DNA of 64,000 nucleotides from Candidatus Bathyarchaeota archaeon. Its GTDB lineage: Archaea > Thermoproteota > Bathyarchaeia > 40CM-2-53-6 > RBG-13-38-9. The notes under the pieces are model-generated. The model searched no databases and was not told where the DNA came from. It worked only from the letters and a program-made list of their open reading frames with translations. Within the stretch, counting starts at the first letter, position 1; each line of letters begins with the position of its first letter. This document shows positions 3,504-46,170 of the stretch, one piece after another. The DNA lies in the NCBI GenBank assembly GCA_963807605.1, contig CAWECG010000001.1, positions 1 to 64,000 of the forward strand, read 5' to 3'. The translations under genes were made by a program, and so were the position numbers.

Positions 3504-5072
3504 GTGTTCACCCAAGAAAGTGGTAGTAGACTGGCATTGTCTCAGGAACGTTCTTGGACTCGGCGTTGGCGTTGGGTTGGGGCATTGATGCTAGAGGCTG
3601 TCCTTGTCGGGGTGATTGATAGGCTCTTCAATCCACTCTTAGACCTTTTGAATAGTCTATTCACTCAACAGACTCACAGTAACTCGACATTTCTACTTGG
3701 ATCGGTAGCCATCCTCACAATCATTGTCGCGTCGATTCTTGGATTCCTGCTGGTACAACACCTTTGCAGATGGGTGAAAGCCGCCAACCAAGCCATGCAA
3801 AGAACTAGAGTAACAATCCCAGAAACCCAAAAACAAGAAGTCACACAACCAACAAGCCCCATTAGTCGAGAAGCGGGAACTACAATTTCGATAACTTCAG
3901 TGAGTCCCGAACCTCTAATTGCTACTATGGCTGATCGACCTGTTGCCGAAGAATTGTCCACAAAGTCAGGTATAGAGTATTTCAATTCTCGTAAAGAGAG
4001 GGATGAGAAATATCCTCTCGTAGACCTTCTTTCACAAGCGAAGTTCAGGATAGTCTTGTTAGGGGGTTCGTTAGAGACAGTAGTATCACAACATGTTCGA
4101 CTTGTTGAAAAACTACTCAAAGGTGAGGTGGAGATGGAATTCTTAATTCAAGATCCTGAGTGGGTGAAGTCGGTTGAGATAGACAAAGGAACATCTTCTG
4201 GAAACCTTTCTGATGGCATTAACAGAACACTGGATTTGCTCCGTGAAATAAGACATAAAGTACGAGTTCCTGAAAATGTTAATTGTACAATTAAGATGTA
4301 TAAGTTCCATGCTACCCATAGTGGCATAGTCATAGATCCAGATAGTTCTGAAGCCAGAGCCATAATTGAGTTTTATCCGTACGATACAGACGCCGAGTTA
4401 AAACCCTCTATTGTAATCAATAGAAGAGAGAATGAGGCTGTTTTCAGTAAGTGGTGGCGCAGTTTTAAGTATGTTTTAGATAACTCAGAAGAATATACAA
4501 CTCCACCACCTAAGTTGATCGTCAAGCCAGCAGAACTAAGCCCAGATAAGAAACCAAGAGAAATCCGTGTCCTATTTCCTAATGGTCAAGAGAGGTCACA
4601 TGAAGCCTATTTTTACTTCCTTACAGTAAAGAATGCTGAGGGAAAGAGAATCAAAGGTTTACGACCATGTATCGACAAAATTAATATGAAGATCGTAGAA
4701 CCCGGTCAAAAGCGCACAATAAGAGTTGTCAATGACGGGTCTCTTGAAGATTTTGACAAATCCACTTCATCTTCGCCGGAAGCTTTCCTTTTCGCTTTGA
4801 ATCACGACAGGAGAAAAGCAAAAGATAGTAGCGTTGACTTGCTTGCAGATGAATCCTTAACATTTGCCCTTTTCGTCACTTTGAAGGATTTTCCGGAGTT
4901 GCATTATTTCGCAGACCCAAGTAGATACCCTGATCCTATCCCGGGTAAGAACCGGGTCGAACTAAGCTTTAGAACGGAGGACTTCCTTCCTTACCATGTG
5001 GCAACATACGAGATAATTACTAAATCGTGGTATGACATTGATGTCGACGAAGTTCAGGTTAGAGAAGTTTAG
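3504..5072 (+). CDS. Membrane-anchored protein with a DUF5919-like (PLD-fold-like) central domain
   Basis: Two N-terminal hydrophobic helices; IVLLGGSL...EFLIQDP...IKMYK...SGIVIDP...AIIEFYPY pattern. Confidence 0.55.
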   Translation: MFTQESGSRLALSQERSWTRRWRWVGALMLEAVLVGVIDRLFNPLLDLLNSLFTQQTHSNSTFLLGSVAILTIIVASILGFLLVQHLCRWVKAANQAMQRTRVTIPETQKQEVTQPTSPISREAGTTISITSVSPEPLIATMADRPVAEELSTKSGIEYFNSRKERDEKYPLVDLLSQAKFRIVLLGGSLETVVSQHVRLVEKLLKGEVEMEFLIQDPEWVKSVEIDKGTSSGNLSDGINRTLDLLREIRHKVRVPENVNCTIKMYKFHATHSGIVIDPDSSEARAIIEFYPYDTDAELKPSIVINRRENEAVFSKWWRSFKYVLDNSEEYTTPPPKLIVKPAELSPDKKPREIRVLFPNGQERSHEAYFYFLTVKNAEGKRIKGLRPCIDKINMKIVEPGQKRTIRVVNDGSLEDFDKSTSSSPEAFLFALNHDRRKAKDSSVDLLADESLTFALFVTLKDFPELHYFADPSRYPDPIPGKNRVELSFRTEDFLPYHVATYEIITKSWYDIDVDEVQVREV

Positions 5073-32335: not shown

Positions 32336-32719
32336 ATGAGCACTCCAAATGAACCAGTGACCCGTGGTGCACCGAAGAATACTGGCGGTAGACCACAGCG
32401 TAAGCCAGTTCCTTGGCCTAAGAGATTCAAACTTGACACCAGAGACGACGCTAGGGCTTTTCACCGCAACTATATCAAGACGGTTTGGACTGAGAACCCG
32501 ATGGATAGTCGCGCCGCTGGATCCTTGAATATGGCTTTACGATTGCTCTATGAGCTGGAGGGGTGGATTCAGAAGGCTCCACTGCAGATTATTCAAGCTC
32601 AGACCGTTGTGAAGTTTAACGTTGAAGAGTTGAAGCAGAAACTTGACGCTTTCAGCCAGGAAGAACAGCGAGTCCTCGCTAGAGCAATTGCCAAACTTGA
32701 AGCTAGCACTAGCACATAA
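32336..32719 (+). CDS. Probable terminase small subunit
   Basis: GAPKNTGGRP motif; position directly upstream of TerL. Confidence 0.6.
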   Translation: MSTPNEPVTRGAPKNTGGRPQRKPVPWPKRFKLDTRDDARAFHRNYIKTVWTENPMDSRAAGSLNMALRLLYELEGWIQKAPLQIIQAQTVVKFNVEELKQKLDAFSQEEQRVLARAIAKLEASTST

Positions 32720-34010
32720 GGATCCCATTAGTTTAGCGTCGCTCTATGCTAAAACGAACCCTAGTCCCGGACAGACTAGATTCATGGAGGCTATCTGTTC
32801 CACAGCTCCAGAACACCGTCAAATAGTAGTGAAGACTTGCAGGAAAGGCGGCAAAACCATAAGCGTCGCAGTTGCATTCGCCAGCCTATTCCTCACAGAA
32901 CCCACCATCAGGATCTTTCACCTATCTGGTAGCTATCTTCAAGCCTCAAGACTCTACGATTACTTCAAGCCAATAGTTGTCAATGAAGAACTCTTTCCAG
33001 ATGCTCTCGAGTCAGAGCCAACAAGATACTTTACCAGATTCAAGAAAGGCGGCTGCCTAGAAGTAGCAACCGCCAGCGCAAAGAGCATCCGAGGCGGAGA
33101 CTATGACATTCTCAGCATCGACGAAGCCGTTCTGGTTCCTCCACCCTTGATTGATGCGGCTTGGGCACTGCCACGTGCCTCTAAACGTCCAAAGAGAATA
33201 ATCACTAGCACCGCCAGCCCCGAGGTCAACCTTGAATGGTTCCTCCGGCTTTGGCAGCAAGCACAGCAATTAGGCTTCGAACCCTTTGAATGGCAACCTG
33301 AAGAATGCACTTGGCTCAACACCGACGATAATGCTCTCGCCAGAAAGATACTTGACAGCGTCACCTACGCAATTGAGTATGAGGGCAAGATTGGCGAGCG
33401 GAAAGGACTGGTCTGGAGCGGCAACCTAGTCAATGAGAAAGGCGAAGCCAAATCACTCATCGACAGTGCAATAGTGGATCCGCGAAGGGCAGAACAATAC
33501 CCCATCCCCCTGGCGCCTCCTGCAACCGAATGGTCATGTGGTCTCGACTGGGGATTCACACACCCCACCGTCCTCACAGTCTGGGAGAAACAGGGCGAAA
33601 CCGTCTATGCTCGTGACTGCAGAATATGGAGTGAGACGCGGTTCACAGAGATAATGCAGGAGATCAAGGAGGACTACGGCAACATTACAGTCAACGCTGA
33701 CTCCTCCAGTCCCGGTGAGATTGCGGAGTTGAAGAGTCTCGGCGTCACCGTCGTCCCCGTCATCTTCAGCAAGGAGAAGAGTGAGCTTATCAGTCATATT
33801 CGCTGGCGTCTCGAGAACAGGTTCCTGAAGATTCCAGACCCGGAAGTTGACAGCCGATTTTTCACTCTTGTTCAACAGATGAAAGCCTACCACTACGATG
33901 CCAGCGGTAAGCCGGCCAAGGTAAACGACGACGCTGTTGACTCAATGATTTGTGGAATGAAATTCTTTCTGCATCCACCAGTGATGCCGTTTGAGGCGAA
34001 AATCTTCTAA
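32643..34010 (+). CDS. terL: Terminase large subunit
   Basis: CRKGGKT Walker A, SIDEA Walker B, GLDWGFTHP, ADSS, NDDAVDS nuclease motifs. Confidence 0.92.
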   Translation: MTLSARKNSESSLEQLPNLKLALAHKDPISLASLYAKTNPSPGQTRFMEAICSTAPEHRQIVVKTCRKGGKTISVAVAFASLFLTEPTIRIFHLSGSYLQASRLYDYFKPIVVNEELFPDALESEPTRYFTRFKKGGCLEVATASAKSIRGGDYDILSIDEAVLVPPPLIDAAWALPRASKRPKRIITSTASPEVNLEWFLRLWQQAQQLGFEPFEWQPEECTWLNTDDNALARKILDSVTYAIEYEGKIGERKGLVWSGNLVNEKGEAKSLIDSAIVDPRRAEQYPIPLAPPATEWSCGLDWGFTHPTVLTVWEKQGETVYARDCRIWSETRFTEIMQEIKEDYGNITVNADSSSPGEIAELKSLGVTVVPVIFSKEKSELISHIRWRLENRFLKIPDPEVDSRFFTLVQQMKAYHYDASGKPAKVNDDAVDSMICGMKFFLHPPVMPFEAKIF

Positions 34011-34013
34011 GGT

Positions 34014-35789
34014 TTGAGAATAATGCCACACTGGCCTACACTATTCAACCGGACCAAGCAGGCAATCATAGAAGTTCCACCATCACCATCGCCAATTCAA
34101 CTCTATGAGGGACATGTCTGGGGAACAGCGCCAGATGATGAGACACCATTTAAAGGCATCAACTACTCCGTAACAGTTGACCAGACTGGTAAAGTACGAC
34201 CCGGCGCAATGTCGCGAACCCAGGTCTGGAAGCAGAACGATAAAATCTTTGAGATGCGCAGCGAAGTCAGCAGCGCCTTCATGGCCCTCGCCGGCTACGT
34301 CATCGCAAGAGGCTTCGTCACAGTTGCAACAGATCCAAAGGATCCCACTGCTATTAATGCTAAGGACATTTGTGACAAGTACACGCAGGATATTGGATTA
34401 GACCAGATAATCTATGAAGGCACCATGGACCTGGCGAAGCACGGCAACCTCTTCCTTGAGAACAAGATAGTTACCGGTAAACTCTTGGACACCCGACTCT
34501 TTCCCTGGCAGGACGCAATGGAGCCCGCGACTCTGACAGCTGACGGTGAGATTGCGACCTGGCGACAATATGTACCCGGCAAGCAATCCATCGAGTTTGA
34601 ACCTGAAGAAATAGTACACATAAGGCTTCCACCCTTGGATGAGCAACGATTCGGCACCCCACTGCTTCAATCCGTCAAGAAAGTGTTGGCTACAAATGAC
34701 CAGTTGGAAACCGACGTCGGAGCCTACATGCATGGATCCGCCTTTCCAAAGGAAATATTCAGTTTGAGCAGTCCACAGCCTGAGCGGGAACTCTCTGTTA
34801 ACAGTGTTCAACTAGCTTATGCCCGTCTTCGACAGTGGAATCCCGGCGACAAATTCGTCACCGACATGAATGTGAACTATCAAACAGCGGGAGTTGGCAG
34901 ATTTGAAAGTCGCCTGATACCCAGTTTCGTCAGCGATAACGCGGATAAGTGTGTTAGCGGCCTCATAATGCCAACCACATCGTACCTGCGAAGTGCAACT
35001 GAAGCCTCCGCCGCCACCATGGAGGATCATGCGAATCGTGCGCTTATAATGCCTATTCAGCGGATTTGGAAGCGCAAGATTGAGCTTGAAATGTTCAAGC
35101 CTCTCCTAGTCGGCGAAGGCATAGACGAGAAATATGTTCCCCAAATTGTTTTTGGATTACCAACAGAAGAGGAAGTCGCAAGTAAAACAGTGAGGATCAT
35201 CAGCATGTACACAGCTGGACTCCAGCAAGGCCAGCCGGGACTGCTTGACCGAGCGGAGTGTCGCGGCCTCTTAGACATTGCAGACCCTGAGAAACCACCT
35301 GAACCAATGCCGGCAACACAGCCGGGAAAAACAGGTTTGAACGCACCCACGCCCGCGGAACCAGTGACACCTCCTGAAGATGAAGGTGAACCTGCGGAAC
35401 CTGAAACTGAGAATGATGATGAGACGCCGGAGAAGAGACCGGGGTTAACTCCAACATTGCCGAAGACTCCTGATAGTGAGGAGCCTGAACAGGAAGAAAA
35501 ACCCGTGAAGGGTAGGCCTCACATCAATAAGCTTCATGAACGAAGCAAGTTGTGGACTGACCAACTGCAACAGGTAGTTAAGAATTACATGGAGAAGAAG
35601 GTCAATGAGAAAGAAGCCCGCAGTCAAGCAGTCACAGTCATTAATGTTCACTGTGAGCAGGTTGGAAAGATTGCTCTTGAACGATTGAAGACTACGAGTC
35701 TACCGCCGGAGACTGTTAGCCAGATTGAACGTTTGAAGCAGCAGGCTCTTCGAGACTTCGAGAAGATACTGAAGGATGTTAAAACTTGA
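34014..35789 (+). CDS. Portal protein with Pro/Glu-rich C-terminal extension
   Basis: Follows TerL; HGNLFLE, EEIVHIRL, FGTPLL. Confidence 0.85.
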   Translation: MRIMPHWPTLFNRTKQAIIEVPPSPSPIQLYEGHVWGTAPDDETPFKGINYSVTVDQTGKVRPGAMSRTQVWKQNDKIFEMRSEVSSAFMALAGYVIARGFVTVATDPKDPTAINAKDICDKYTQDIGLDQIIYEGTMDLAKHGNLFLENKIVTGKLLDTRLFPWQDAMEPATLTADGEIATWRQYVPGKQSIEFEPEEIVHIRLPPLDEQRFGTPLLQSVKKVLATNDQLETDVGAYMHGSAFPKEIFSLSSPQPERELSVNSVQLAYARLRQWNPGDKFVTDMNVNYQTAGVGRFESRLIPSFVSDNADKCVSGLIMPTTSYLRSATEASAATMEDHANRALIMPIQRIWKRKIELEMFKPLLVGEGIDEKYVPQIVFGLPTEEEVASKTVRIISMYTAGLQQGQPGLLDRAECRGLLDIADPEKPPEPMPATQPGKTGLNAPTPAEPVTPPEDEGEPAEPETENDDETPEKRPGLTPTLPKTPDSEEPEQEEKPVKGRPHINKLHERSKLWTDQLQQVVKNYMEKKVNEKEARSQAVTVINVHCEQVGKIALERLKTTSLPPETVSQIERLKQQALRDFEKILKDVKT

Positions 35790-36817: not shown

Positions 36818-38561
36818 AGTCAAGGAATCCTTCGAGTGGGCAGGGCCAATAAGCCTCTACAAGACTGAGAATGACGGTGCAAGAATCTATAAGGGCCGTG
36901 CTATTAGCGCCCGAATAAGCGGCAACAAAGTCAAATATGCTCCTGAAGAATTAAAATCAGCAGCAAAAAGCCTTGCCGACCATCCCCTAAACATCAACCA
37001 TAAAATTCCATTACCCTTCGACTCTACTAGGCAAACCATTGATAATCGCACATTAGACTCAGACTATAATCCTAAAACAAAAGCAGTCGAAGTCATCTAT
37101 CGTGTGGTTGATAAAAAAACAAACGACCTCTACGATCAGGGGAAAATCAATCACCTTAGCATCGAAGGAGCCGCACGAGATAAGCAGCCAAGCACAGGCG
37201 GATCTGAGGAAGCACAGGGATTACACTTCAATGGTCTAGCCTTAGTCACAAAAGATGTAACACCGGGGGACCCGACGACAAACATCAGTCTATGGGAGAC
37301 TGTTCAATTCTACGAGACTACCGTCGACCGGTTGCTAGGTGAACGGCCCGACCTTGCAGCCGCTACTAACGAGGAAGGCAAGACCCTTAGCCAAATGCTT
37401 AAGGATGCTCAAGTTGTCGCCGTCTGCAAGTGTGGCACCGAGTTTGATCCCACGTTAAAGGCTTGTCCCAAATGTAACGAACACTTCGAAGTGAAAGGCA
37501 AGCTAGTCTTACGATCACCAGATAACGAGGTGAAAAAAGATATGAGTAATAAAGTAGAAACTCCAAAATCAACCGAGAAAGTTGAGGAAGCAGGCTGGGG
37601 CGCCGCAGACTGGCCCAACTCCTGCTTCGCCTACGTTCCTAAAGACGGTAATCCAAGCGACCGTAAACTGCCCTACAAGAACAAGGATGGATCCGTAGAC
37701 ATACCCCATGTGAGAAACGCGTTGGCTCGTCTAGACCAGACTCAAGGCATCCCACCTGCCGAGAAAGAGGAGATTCGAACAATGCTGCAGAATCTCCTCA
37801 AGAAAGACAATCCAGACTATGAACCCTCAGAGAATAAAGCCCGCGTTGTAGCAGCTAAGGAAGAGAAGGATCCCCACATCGAGATCCCAGCGGTGTATGA
37901 TGGAATTGCGGGAGCGATGCATGAGAAGAAGATCGCGCCTGAAGTCTATCAAGAACTCAAACGCATCGCGACTAACAGCATCAACAAGGCCCAAGACCTA
38001 GACAGCAAGATCAATATTATTCGAGACCTGCAGAACAGTCAGATCGCTGAGATCAGTAAAGAAGTTGCCAAGGCAAACGAGGAACTCAAGAAGGTCGCAG
38101 CTTCAGCATCAACGAAGGCTGAAGTTATGGATGCCGTAACCAAGGTCGACGTTAAACTCAGCGGCGAACTAACTGAGACTAAGGAGCAGGTTCAAAAGCG
38201 TATCGAAGCAGGCGAGCTAGACAAGAAAGCAACGGAGACACAAGTAAAAAGCTTCAGCGAAACCATCACAGCACTCGGCCAGCGACTCGAAGCCTTCACG
38301 AAGAAGGTTGATGAAACCATGGAGAACATTCGCAAGGGCATGGAATCCTTCGATAAACGTGTTGACGGTGCAGTGAAGATAGCTGAGACAGTTAAGGAGA
38401 CTATTGAAAGCCGCAAGGCACTCAAGACTATACCGTTCAAAGGCACACACCCCGACGCATTGAAAGAAACTGTTGAAGCACCAGCAACACCGAAGACCGA
38501 GTCAACAGTTGACGAGGCTATTCAGGAAGCATGGACCAACAAGCTCAAGAAGAGACTGTAA
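36801..38561 (+). CDS. Prohead protease-scaffold fusion
   Basis: PLNINH...HLSIEG...GLALVT..PGDP protease-like N-terminus; CKC/CPKC; long coiled-coil C-terminus. Confidence 0.75.
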   Translation: MSQKLEVKESFEWAGPISLYKTENDGARIYKGRAISARISGNKVKYAPEELKSAAKSLADHPLNINHKIPLPFDSTRQTIDNRTLDSDYNPKTKAVEVIYRVVDKKTNDLYDQGKINHLSIEGAARDKQPSTGGSEEAQGLHFNGLALVTKDVTPGDPTTNISLWETVQFYETTVDRLLGERPDLAAATNEEGKTLSQMLKDAQVVAVCKCGTEFDPTLKACPKCNEHFEVKGKLVLRSPDNEVKKDMSNKVETPKSTEKVEEAGWGAADWPNSCFAYVPKDGNPSDRKLPYKNKDGSVDIPHVRNALARLDQTQGIPPAEKEEIRTMLQNLLKKDNPDYEPSENKARVVAAKEEKDPHIEIPAVYDGIAGAMHEKKIAPEVYQELKRIATNSINKAQDLDSKINIIRDLQNSQIAEISKEVAKANEELKKVAASASTKAEVMDAVTKVDVKLSGELTETKEQVQKRIEAGELDKKATETQVKSFSETITALGQRLEAFTKKVDETMENIRKGMESFDKRVDGAVKIAETVKETIESRKALKTIPFKGTHPDALKETVEAPATPKTESTVDEAIQEAWTNKLKKRL

Positions 38562-38842
38562 ACTGGACTAAGGAATACTATTACGTTGACGAAGTCAGCG
38601 ACATCAGCTTCCACGACGACTACGTTGAACTACACTTGAAAAGACGAAGCGGACACATCTTCATAGGACACCCCATCACCCTACCCCAACTCGCAGCCAG
38701 CAAAGAAATCCTAAAGGGCGACTGGGTCCGAGTTGACTTCATACAGAACGGCTACAGCGCTATTGGAGTTCACCGACTTTTAGAGCTCCGGAAGGCAACA
38801 CTTGAAGACTTAGACATTGCGGCTAAGCAAGGCGAATTATAG
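38531..38842 (+). CDS. Hypothetical viral protein
   Basis: ORF followed by a T7 run. Confidence 0.5.
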   Translation: MDQQAQEETVNWTKEYYYVDEVSDISFHDDYVELHLKRRSGHIFIGHPITLPQLAASKEILKGDWVRVDFIQNGYSAIGVHRLLELRKATLEDLDIAAKQGEL

Positions 38843-38849
38843 TTTTTTT
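38843..38849 (+). terminator. Oligo-T archaeal terminator candidate
   Basis: T7 directly after the stop codon. Confidence 0.45.
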
Positions 38850-39120
38850 CATGGTCACGCAGAATATCCGATACGTGACGCTGCTCCAAAAGTGGCAGAA
38901 TTGTTGTCGGAAGATTCTGCATGATAGAGCTAGCCCCGCGATGATGAGGGCTTAAAGAACCGACAGGCTGCAGTAACTTAGACTAAACTGCAAGGACTCG
39001 GTCGCAAACCGAGCGCCTGTCGTTATATTCACGCCTGTAAGACGGGCGGGTACACGGCACCCGTTCCCTAATCCTCGAAATGACGGGAGCCAAACCAGCG
39101 CACCTACTCAAGCGCTTAAC
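38850..39120 (+). ncRNA. Candidate highly structured RNA upstream of the capsid genes
   Basis: At least 8 helices, including a three-way junction closed by CGACAGGC/GCCTGTCG (38961-68/39015-22). Confidence 0.55.
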
Positions 39121-39137
39121 AAATGGAGTGATGAGAA

Positions 39138-39575
39138 ATGGCAATAGATTATTGGCCTCAGAAAGACGGCGTAATATCACTAAACCCAGTAGTCGGCTTC
39201 TTCATGACCGGCGACACATCAGTCGTCAACGGCTTAGGAGTCCAATGCTACACATCTGACACTGCTGGACAAGTCACGATTATGCTTGCCACAGCCAAGC
39301 AGGGTTGGGGCATAGCATTGGCAACACAGGCAACAGCCGGAAAAACTGTTCCCGTTTGCACTCGCGGATTTGTCAAGGCAATAGCAGGCGGAACCTATAC
39401 TCGAAACCTCGCGGTTGCTTTTGACTCAGCCGGCAAGGTTGTGGCACTAGCAGACCAAGCAGTCAACGAGTCCGGGTCATCCACCTACACGATCTATTAC
39501 AGCGCTAAGATTGGCAGAGCAATGCGGAGTGGAACACAGAGTGGCGATGAGATTCTCATCTACCTGAACCCATAG
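39138..39575 (+). CDS. Capsid cement/decoration protein (DUF2190-like)
   Basis: Small Gly/Ala/Thr-rich protein: GIAL...AGKTVPV..RG, GKVV, IGRA...GDEI. Confidence 0.7.
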   Translation: MAIDYWPQKDGVISLNPVVGFFMTGDTSVVNGLGVQCYTSDTAGQVTIMLATAKQGWGIALATQATAGKTVPVCTRGFVKAIAGGTYTRNLAVAFDSAGKVVALADQAVNESGSSTYTIYYSAKIGRAMRSGTQSGDEILIYLNP

Positions 39576-39588
39576 GAGCGGAAGAATC

Positions 39589-40659
39589 TTGATGCAACTC
39601 AAAGAAATAGGAACCCTAATGGAAACCCAGCTTAAAGACAAGTTGGGAATCACCGGCAGCGAATCTATGGAGAAATTCATGAAGATGCAAGCCGGATCCA
39701 AGAAGTCTGAAGGCTTCGTGGATCCGATAAGTTTCAGCCCCTACAAGGATGAAGTCTACGGCAGACTGCGAAAGACAAGTCTAAACCAGCTCTACGAGAT
39801 CGTAGGCGGCGGAACCGGCACAGACTGGATAAGCTTCGTCATACCCATCAAAATCTACCAGGTAATGGCTGATGCTTTCTATGATGCAGACATCGGCGAC
39901 GAAATCCTAGCCGCAGACATTCCTAACTTCGACGGTGGAACCCTCAACTACCTATGGGGAACCATCGACAGCATGTATCCTGTAGACTACGCAGAGCCCG
40001 GTTCACCTCCAATGGTTCAGATAGAACCCGACAAGGCAGCCCTCACCCCTACACCCTTCGGAATGGACATGGCGATTTCCAGATCGTTGGTTGAAGACTC
40101 AGCCTTCGGGCTGGTTGAAACCTACGTTCGCAATGCGGGTGCGGCTATGGGATTCTTCGCCACCGCTAAGATTCTTAAAGCCCTATACGCAGGCTACGAT
40201 GCCACAGACAATGCAGTCGCAGGATCCAGCGGCGCCATCACGGTCCAACAGGTTCTAGCAGCGAAAGGCAAAGTGGAGAATCAGGGTGGACTCGCAGACA
40301 AATGCGTAGTCACCGCACCTATGAAGACTAACATATTCGGCGATACCGCAACCTTCAATCTAGCACTTCTATGGAAACAGAAACAGGTCCAAGACTACGA
40401 CATTAACGGCACCTTCGAAATGGAATGGTACACCAGAAGGGCAGTCACATTCAATGGACTCTACGACACACCCACCAGCAAGTATTACGCTCTAATCTTC
40501 GAGCAGGCCCGTGGAGCAGTCCGAGCGTGGAAGCGACCCCTAACCATCACCAACTACGACGAACCCAACGAGGGCTACGTCGGAGCAGCGGTGACGGCTA
40601 GGCAGGCAAGTGCGGCTATCCATGACGGACGCTACGTCAGCGCCATCCTCGAGACCTAA
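39589..40659 (+). CDS. Major capsid protein (HK97 fold, inferred)
   Basis: 356 aa, canonical position; ISRSLVEDSAFGLVETYVRN. Confidence 0.8.
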   Translation: MMQLKEIGTLMETQLKDKLGITGSESMEKFMKMQAGSKKSEGFVDPISFSPYKDEVYGRLRKTSLNQLYEIVGGGTGTDWISFVIPIKIYQVMADAFYDADIGDEILAADIPNFDGGTLNYLWGTIDSMYPVDYAEPGSPPMVQIEPDKAALTPTPFGMDMAISRSLVEDSAFGLVETYVRNAGAAMGFFATAKILKALYAGYDATDNAVAGSSGAITVQQVLAAKGKVENQGGLADKCVVTAPMKTNIFGDTATFNLALLWKQKQVQDYDINGTFEMEWYTRRAVTFNGLYDTPTSKYYALIFEQARGAVRAWKRPLTITNYDEPNEGYVGAAVTARQASAAIHDGRYVSAILET

Positions 40660-40753
40660 GCAAATAATCGAACATATGTTCGGTAAAACGAACAATCATT
40701 TCTAACCCTGTCTTATTGACGCGACAGGTTTCCCAATCACATAGTGGAGGTGA

Positions 40754-40930
40754 GTTGTTGTTGTTGTAGATACACAGAAGGAACTGTTTGAATCAAAAGA
40801 TCAATTAGAAGTAATCAATACGCCTGACAATCTGCTCGTCATAAAGAAAAAGGGCAAGACCGTTGCCGTCTTCAAGAACTGGTTGTACTGGTATGTTTCT
40901 CCAACCATAGAGCTAGGTTCCTATGTTTGA
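40754..40930 (+). CDS. Small protein frame lacking a canonical start (GTT start or 1-nt indel)
   Basis: Strong GGAGGTGA RBS followed by a 58-codon open frame VVVVVDTQKELF...WLYW. Confidence 0.4.
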   Translation, partial: VVVVVDTQKELFESKDQLEVINTPDNLLVIKKKGKTVAVFKNWLYWYVSPTIELGSYV

Positions 40931-45662: not shown

Positions 45663-45750
45663 GAGAAATTTTATGACTATTTCAACAGATTTTCTTGAAC
45701 CACAAATCCTAGTCACGGCCGAAAGGCCATGATAAAACAATTAAGGAGGA

Positions 45751-46170
45751 ATGGAAATGTCTTTACCCGTTAAGGGATGGATTGGCAGACTCAGAATTGC
45801 CACCACTGACGTCGGACTCACAACCAATGTCACTGGAATCACCAACGTCTCACCAAACCTGACAAATAATGTTACGGCAGCATATGAGCTTGGCAGCAGG
45901 CTACCTCAAGCCGTCCTCGAAGGCAACATTAAACTGGACATGACAATAACCAGATTTTACATTGATAACACTTGGTTCAACTATGCGTACAGCGCGACAG
46001 CTCAGACAGCATACTACGTCCGCATATACCCACAAGGAGACGGCACAGGAATGCCGTATGTTGAGTACCTTGGTAAGTTTAGCAGCTGGAAGCTAACAGA
46101 GGCACAAGCAAACGAGGTTACTGAGCAATTGACCTTTGAGGGAAGCGCAGTAAGCATAGGAACGGCGTAG
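45751..46170 (+). CDS. Tail tube protein 1
   Basis: Beta-rich; YELGSRLP..VLEGN; position before the chaperone and tape measure genes. Confidence 0.7.
   Translation: MEMSLPVKGWIGRLRIATTDVGLTTNVTGITNVSPNLTNNVTAAYELGSRLPQAVLEGNIKLDMTITRFYIDNTWFNYAYSATAQTAYYVRIYPQGDGTGMPYVEYLGKFSSWKLTEAQANEVTEQLTFEGSAVSIGTA

Follow-up and report, generated by a model that had tools for sequence, protein, structure and literature searches.

A probable structured mRNA leader ahead of the cement and major capsid protein genes of an archaeal tailed provirus

Results

The window, that is, the whole 64,000-nt stretch of DNA analysed here, contains a tailed provirus at approximately 20-52 kb, and the 16S gene of the host is archaeal. 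The terminase, portal, cement and capsid genes of the provirus all lie on the + strand. The genes that frame the region of interest are the following.

32643-34010, + strand: large terminase gene
34014-35789, + strand: portal gene, after which several unknown head genes come
38531-38842, + strand: upstream gene of 103 aa, from the open reading frame list; its stop codon abuts an oligo-T run
39138-39575, + strand: cement/decoration-like head protein gene of 145 aa (PHROG 673), the first gene behind the leader described below
39589-40659, + strand: major capsid protein (MCP) gene of 356 aa, with homologues at 43-52% identity

Searches of the 103-aa gene against Pfam and PHROG gave no matches, and small homologues of it occupy the same location in relatives. 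The 145-aa protein scored 22.5 bits against Pfam Phage_cement_2, slightly below the cut-off of 24, and the same family is recorded for the cement homologues in L034, L035 and L037. One of the MCP homologues has Pfam Phage_capsid (PF05065), an annotation that P0013 carries too. In the virions of this provirus, the most abundant proteins are the cement and the major capsid protein.

Between the 103-aa gene and the cement gene lies a non-coding gap of 295 nt (38843-39137), kept long amid an otherwise tightly packed gene array. The original prediction had placed a gene-free, densely structured RNA directly in front of the capsid genes; the position is as predicted, and the gap is slightly wider than was given. 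That prediction had also allowed for a conserved peptide in place of an RNA, and none is encoded: across 38843-39137 every one of the six frames is broken or unconserved, with a longest open stretch of at most 53 codons. A peptide reading by way of the 15-17-codon ORF of L018 and L019 was rejected, as the differences between the two are mainly stem-compensating changes.

Several smaller coding features were seen around this gap and its counterparts. A 36-codon ORF runs through 38851-38961 of the window from an AUG within a conserved CAUGG box; L003 has a 20-codon ORF at the same AUG, and most relatives have CAC or UAG there, so that the ORF is unconserved. In L013 (5121-5471) and L011 (1373-1786), an uncalled gene with a CxxCxxCC zinc/iron-chelating domain (PF03692, E 1e-5 to 5e-7) lies between the small upstream gene and the leader, and its frame extends into the first hairpin of the leader in L013 and through the entire leader in L011. 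A remnant of this gene was sought in the window and not found. In the hydrothermal-vent relative L034, a minus-strand gene of the vacuolar iron transporter family (VIT1, 4195-4731) sits between the capsid and connector genes.

The 295-nt DNA had no further copy or match in its own genome, in 60 related genomes or in a phage collection. A repeat or mobile element was rejected on this ground, and homologous loci were reached by way of the capsid and cement proteins. About a dozen contigs with capsid proteins 36-52% identical came from protein searches and a single metagenome scan, and seven proviruses at 26-30% capsid identity from a six-frame search that covered 400 genomes of the host's class. 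In an MCP profile search, the close clade collapsed to one 50% cluster. Nearly all relatives have a gap before the cement gene, which measures 120-210 nt among the closer relatives and 45-125 nt among the distant ones; the intermediate hydrothermal-vent relatives L034 and L035 have a gap of 25 nt and are without the leader. The closest cement homologue, P0008 (72% identity), has a 162-nt gap and is known here without its DNA. Four short metagenome contigs (L016, L021, L027 and L028) end within the leader or shortly ahead of it, 34-125 nt 5' of the cement gene, which may reflect the chance ends of short contigs or an assembler that breaks at this region.

Folding of the gap gave a minimum free energy of -101.7 kcal/mol, compared with -82.9 +/- 5.3 kcal/mol for dinucleotide shuffles (z -3.5), and none of 200 shuffles was as good. 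The minus strand folds as well (z -4.0), as is expected of helices, and the energies therefore do not decide the strand. The elements of the region are as follows, in 5' to 3' order.

38843-38849, + strand: run of seven T (U-tract), read from the sequence
38850-38879, + strand: linear motif CAYRG and short P1 hairpin (6 bp, 14-nt loop), from the alignment of 14 leaders and the P1 pair table
38854-38925, + strand: long-range alternative of P1, from minimum free energy and partition function (pair probabilities 0.8-0.99)
38932-38952, + strand: hairpin with AUGAUGA loop (pair probability 0.92)
38961-39022, + strand: three-way junction with an 8-bp closing stem and two 6-bp arms (probabilities 0.97-0.99)
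39028-39137, + strand: conserved core of about 110 nt, from the covariance model and covariation statistics
39125-39132, + strand: Shine-Dalgarno sequence, left unpaired by the consensus fold and 5 nt away from the start codon at 39138

Every helix that had been read from the letters was recovered. The first hairpin is a perfect 6-bp helix (38854-38859 with 38874-38879), and its loop and 5' strand are complementary, as proposed, to 38905-38925 in blocks of 7, 7 and 4 bp; the second copy of the competing 7-mer is at 38895-38901. The long form of P1 consists of 38854-57/38922-25, 38859-65/38914-20 and 38867-73/38905-11, with an inner hairpin at 38881-98. Short and long P1 are mutually exclusive, the long form is dominant at equilibrium, and forcing the short one costs 5.9 kcal/mol; taken alone, this 5' subregion has a z of -2.5 against shuffles. 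The stem-loop with AUGAUGA has a 5-bp stem (38932-36 with 38948-52) and an 11-nt loop, one base away from where it had been placed. The three-way junction was likewise found, and alone it reaches a z of -4.07 (0 of 200 shuffles), and the further stems announced towards the ribosome binding site (RBS) correspond to hairpins at 39032-48, 39060-87 and 39097-39116. A helix between the 5' and 3' ends that would mask the start region is present in the minimum free energy fold of the window, but it is at shuffle level in most leaders and was rejected as a conserved feature.

The short P1 appears to be the ancestral form common to relatives, judging from the alignment. Its module consists of an oligo-T run, CAYRG and a hairpin with 5' GUCAC (or a variant) and 3' GUGAY, and it occupies the capsid-leader position in 13 viruses, related or distant. 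Across 14 leaders, the 5' sides form a gap-free alignment with four invariant columns. A T-run of 3-7 precedes P1 in 11 of the 14 (it is absent from L011 and L013), and a P1 of at least 4 bp is formed in all 14, at MCP identities as low as 26-32%. Position 3 of the stem is C-G in 11 leaders, U-A in two and A-U in one; positions 5 and 6 covary too, and six of the 14 close the stem with G.U on the + strand. The loops are 2-14 nt long and in relatives include the RNA tetraloops UUCG, UACG and GAAA; the loop of the window resembles those of L016, L011 and L013. The leaders measure between about 45 and 295 nt, and those of the most distant viruses consist of nothing but a T-run, P1, an A-rich linker and the RBS. 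In L018 (2381-2413) and L019 (2380-2412), an extra 8-bp hairpin that looks like a stem-loop terminator lies between the upstream stop codon and the T-run.

One of the 14 leaders, and the only one among them that is not a capsid leader, lies within the same provirus.

45705-45750, + strand: second P1-type leader, before the presumed tail-tube gene, from the sequence, the motif matrix and the P1 table

It lies in an 88-nt gap and ranks third among the motif-matrix matches in the window. It reads GUCA, a C/A mismatch, a 4-bp stem with a GAAA tetraloop, UGAU, an A-rich linker and a strong RBS, and the base of its stem and the C/A mismatch are identical to those of the long-form P1 of the capsid leader. 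The gene that follows (45751-46170) has no family match and is presumed from its position to be the tail-tube gene. A strict hairpin scan of four distant proviruses found no P1 beyond the capsid position. Another gap of 263 nt, 3' of the capsid gene (40660-40922), contains two hairpins and a T-rich CCAAUCAY motif just before the RBS, and a similar motif is present in L014 (4126-4160), approximately 70 nt past its capsid gene. This gap may be another leader of the same style, ahead of a glycosyltransferase cassette.

Downstream of P1, the core runs in the order UCAC, P2 (39032-48, with a UAAGA loop), P3 (39060-87), a CAAACC junction, P4 (39097-39116), a UUAA A-rich linker and the RBS; P3 is extended by pairing of 39049-58 with 39089-96. 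The closer clade has a P2 with a UAAGU-type pentaloop, a P3 with a long loop and a P4 with a short stem, and its conserved unpaired bases are UCAC, AGG and CAAAYC, followed by UUAAA, the A-rich linker and GGUG or GGAGUG. One of the two latter sequences is found at the equivalent RBS place in all relatives, and the Shine-Dalgarno sequence of the window is complementary to the 3' end of the host 16S rRNA. In all members, P4 is followed by UUAAA-type A-rich sequence and not by a U-run, and the RBS lies within 8-25 nt.

A covariance model (R1) was trained on five sequences with a hand-set structure, as MAFFT misplaced the variable loops. It scored the core of the window at 86.7 bits and recovered five held-out relatives (E 1e-7, 5e-5, 5e-5, 6e-5 and 0.05). 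On the alignment fitted with this model, which covers related sequences and leans towards the structure so that the figures are generous, 84% of the cells are paired, compared with 69% when partners are shuffled and 24-50% when they are slid by 1-3 columns. Changes on both sides occur in 12 of the 17 core pairs, and none of 500 shuffles matched any of five measures, for a sample of about 10 sequences that represent perhaps 6-7 independent lineages. The core stems can be read directly when the gaps are placed side by side, and they differ at most positions between lineages. Compensatory changes of the kind that a conserved RNA should display are thus found for both P1 and the core in related viruses. 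RNAalifold recovered P2 alone from the gappy core alignment, and the thermodynamic z of the relatives' leaders is modest (+0.75 to -4.0). Nucleotide identity of the core or leader is about that of the adjacent coding gene (for example, 70 vs 63% and 61 vs 56%). The core contains 5 G.U cells vs 8 A.C cells, and as G.U is not in excess over A.C, the strand of the core is assigned from its context.

The core is single-copy in the genome. It was found neither in 150 other genomes of the class nor at the loci of the distant proviruses, and a pattern scan of IMG/VR gave 11 matches, none of which was confirmed by the covariance model.

Between P1 and the core lies an insertion of about 145 nt (38880-39023) which has so far been seen in this virus alone and whose support is thermodynamic only. 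It contains the partner strands of the long P1, which partly equal an inverted copy of the P1 region, as well as a small hairpin, the hairpin with the AUGAUGA loop and the three-way junction. The closest relative with DNA is L016 (cement protein 67% identical), and there the UCAC that precedes P2 directly adjoins the 3' strand of P1. L010, L018 and L019 form a hairpin at the equivalent place, with a GA-rich loop of 8 nt; the stem changes between L018 and L019 are compensatory, and the loops of the three differ in register. The three-way junction is absent from all relatives with DNA and is not repeated within the genome. The features most stressed in the original prediction, namely the alternative pairing, the AUGAUGA loop and the junction, are thus the least supported by comparison. 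They lie in an insertion for which no homologue was available, so the idea of a switch rests on energy calculations.

A search of Rfam 15 at gathering thresholds returned no matches in the whole window and 15 related loci, in line with the claim that the RNA is undescribed. The best permissive matches were sR1 (17 bits, cut-off 45) and RAGATH-20 (17.3 bits, cut-off 101.4). Self-cleaving ribozymes (hammerhead, twister, pistol, hatchet and HDV-like) were not detected in 38600-39400 at E up to 10.

Discussion

The helices of this region, their conservation and covariation, their restriction to one position and the lack of coding potential are shown by the results above. We regard 38843-39137 as probably a conserved cis-acting structured mRNA leader for the cement and major capsid proteins, and our confidence in any specific mechanism is lower than in the leader itself. 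The RNA can be assigned to the + strand from the gene direction, the P1 tetraloops and G.U closure, and the terminal Shine-Dalgarno sequence. On the coding strand it directly precedes the cement gene, has no intervening terminator and is conserved through compensatory changes. Since P4 is followed by A-rich sequence and not by a U-run, and the RBS comes 8-25 nt later, the RNA would continue into the cement gene, which argues for a leader over a free small RNA. We infer its transcription, its 5' end and every functional step set out below.

The leader may be built in three layers. Oligo-U and P1 would mark the start of high-output structural genes; the clade-specific P2-P4 core would follow, with an A-rich linker that leaves the RBS single-stranded; and in this virus, the 145-nt insertion would add an alternative partner for P1, a hairpin with a GA-rich loop and a Y-shaped junction. 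By analogy, the U-tract at 38843-38849 is a probable termination or attenuation signal for the upstream transcript, as U-runs are the archaeal termination signal and act with aCPSF1 (PMC8716108), and internal terminators set expression ratios within archaeal operons (PMC10450193). The U-run might thus end or attenuate the transcript of the low-copy head genes upstream, and the capsid message may start, or be cut, just ahead of P1. P1, at or near the 5' end, could then shield the message from 5'-to-3' decay, and the core might serve as a folding or protein-binding platform which keeps the RBS open and sets the translation yield. A U-run in this position would lower read-through into the capsid genes, and a promoter or processing step must therefore be assumed. 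The lack of a TATA element at a fixed distance from P1 speaks against this scheme and is its main gap.

A more elaborate version would join these elements into a virus-wide "late leader code" of U-run, CAYRG and P1. Here, aCPSF1/FttA would cleave beside CA and free the upstream message, the hairpin would block a 5'-to-3' exonuclease while the polymerase proceeds into the capsid or tail genes with a protected 5' end, and the P2-P4 core, as an operator bound by protein, would adjust how much capsid is made. We consider this combined reading distinctly unlikely as it stands; if true, it would be an RNA-based antitermination or processing device without a described archaeal counterpart.

Another explanation is a regulatory switch or operator, in which a viral head protein, the host's L7Ae, another RNA-binding protein or a small ligand binds the core or the GA-rich hairpin, and the competing folds of P1 set capsid translation in this virus. 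The conserved unpaired UAAGU loop, the UCAC and CAAAYC junctions and UUAAA are typical of tertiary folds or protein sites, the two P1 folds exclude each other and the short one would form first during transcription, and a hairpin with a GA-rich loop recurs at corresponding positions of the window, L010, L018 and L019. The core also has traits of a riboswitch aptamer, as its helices covary and its junction bases are conserved, but it matched no known riboswitch class in Rfam and its gene context gives no hint of a ligand. An expression platform was rejected because the RBS is unpaired in the consensus with no conserved helix to sequester it, no U-run follows P4, and the closing helix of the 5' and 3' ends is unconserved. 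As the alternative pairing is moreover private to this virus, we judge a switch unlikely.

The original description called the loop C-box- or K-loop-like. K-turns and K-loops, the sites of L7Ae, have tandem sheared G.A pairs beside a helix; a K-turn combines these with a 3-nt bulge, and a K-loop with a loop of approximately 7 nt (PMC7991803). The loop at 38937-47 resembles both K-loops and box C/D RNAs in having AUGAUGA (38941-47), which agrees with the C box consensus RUGAUGA, and in its two GA dinucleotides, which might pair in tandem as sheared pairs. In contrast to the described K-loop, however, its GA steps are placed differently (PMC7991803): pairing them leaves a 2-nt loop closed by U.U, and the 5' GA is 3 nt from the stem. 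A box C/D sRNA was rejected, since there is no CUGA D box, terminal stem or guide, the motif lies inside a hairpin loop, the covariance model aligns over the C-box half only, and the score is far below threshold (17 vs 45 bits).

A separate, stable small RNA that works in trans, whether in packaging or assembly, as a host-factor decoy or as an excised intron-like product, seems very unlikely to us. The dense, stable structure of 270-295 nt would suit it, and a closure resembling a bulge-helix-bulge can be drawn between 38845-57 and 39129-38, with a 6-bp outer helix, 3-nt bulges and a 4-bp central helix. We defined the bulge-helix-bulge as a 4-bp helix with two 3-nt bulges on opposite strands, conserved among homologues; the closure occurs in only 2 of 14 leaders and in up to 41% of shuffle trials, which is chance level, and an intron of this kind was rejected. 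Excision at 38845-38857/39129-39138 would leave a short leader of oligo-U and RBS. Against a trans RNA, there is no terminator between P4 and the RBS in any member, leader length varies from about 45 to 295 nt down to minimal leaders of P1 and linker, and the genome holds no second copy or target-like complement. The suggestion of a free non-coding RNA is thus disfavoured relative to a cis leader, and nothing pointed towards a role in packaging or assembly, which had also been proposed.

The oligo-T run and the P1 palindrome could alternatively form a promoter, operator or terminator block recognized by transcription factors at the DNA level, with the other hairpins incidental. The linear motif before P1 is conserved in sequence, beyond what pairing requires, across very distant viruses, the palindrome sits where archaeal operators often lie, and L037 has a good TATA box approximately 26 nt upstream of the motif. 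However, a TATA-like box before P1 was sought in the other 13 leaders, and none stands at a fixed distance. The spacing of the half-sites is not kept, as the P1 loop ranges from 2 to 14 nt; the loops include classic RNA tetraloops, the stems tolerate G.U on the + strand only, and P2-P4 covary without sequence conservation. We therefore hold a purely DNA-level element to be highly improbable. A neutral spacer, in which the helices arose by chance or as mutational debris, is scarcely credible for the region as a whole: the insertion has no homologue and in part resembles an inverted partial duplication of the P1 region, and some relatives cope with gaps of 25-50 nt, but the fold departs from shuffles overall and at the junction (z -3.5 and -4.07), the core covaries and is conserved at the level of coding sequence, and a long gap is retained in a tightly packed gene array. 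It is unlikely for P1 and the core and possible for parts of the insertion.

The cis-acting leader that we prefer can be compared with several described systems. Among highly expressed phage and bacterial mRNAs, those with the T7 gene 10 leader or the 5' stem-loop of ompA are protected from 5' decay by a hairpin. By analogy, the present leader would share a stable hairpin near the presumed start of the message, an A-rich unstructured stretch and a strong RBS ahead of the major capsid gene; the decay enzymes would here be archaeal (of the aCPSF or aRNase J type), in contrast to those systems, and there are three extra conserved hairpins. The antitermination RNAs nut of lambda and put of HK022 combine a conserved linear box with an adjacent hairpin near a termination signal. 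A linear box and a hairpin lie by a termination signal here too, but the U-run is upstream of the hairpin, not downstream. To our knowledge, no N-like factor is known here and no archaeal antitermination RNA has been described.

Structured leaders of phage genes are a known kind of element. For IMG/VR, Fremin and Kyrpides (2023, PMC10690425) listed candidate structured RNAs that directly precede phage genes, at most 25 nt from the start codon; behind five of these motifs lies a major capsid protein family. The present RNA resembles those motifs in being covariation-supported, in ending no more than about 25 nt before the start codon of a head structural gene and in its presumed cis-regulatory role. 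It differs in that it belongs to uncultured archaeal (Bathyarchaeia-type) tailed viruses, whereas the IMG/VR motifs, which we compared by description only, are mostly from bacteriophages; in standing before the cement gene and not before the capsid gene; and in its modular build, with a first hairpin that is widely shared. In the halovirus HF2, intergenic repeats were shown by reporters to be AT-rich promoter elements (PMC8707807). Both cases involve a short conserved intergenic module reused ahead of several transcription units in an archaeal tailed virus, but here it is a hairpin whose loops are of RNA type and whose sequence changes compensate each other, and no promoter was found. What is new is this particular RNA, which is not in Rfam and which unites a widely shared first hairpin with a clade-specific core.

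Almost nothing was found in the literature on how archaeal tailed viruses time or scale the expression of their structural genes, and a survey of Bathyarchaeia viruses says nothing about promoters, intergenic regions or non-coding elements (PMC10541130). The leader would place a conserved RNA handle at the very point where output has to rise from the few copies of the portal to the hundreds of the capsid and cement proteins. As P1 is common to viruses whose capsid proteins are 26-32% identical and is reused before the presumed tail-tube gene, it appears to be a common regulatory signal and not a one-off. Were it only a stabilizing leader, it would be an ordinary feature in an unusual host. If the function is confirmed, this would be a first class of cis-regulatory RNA restricted to archaeal viruses, and it would serve as a practical marker of late operons in uncultured archaeal viromes.
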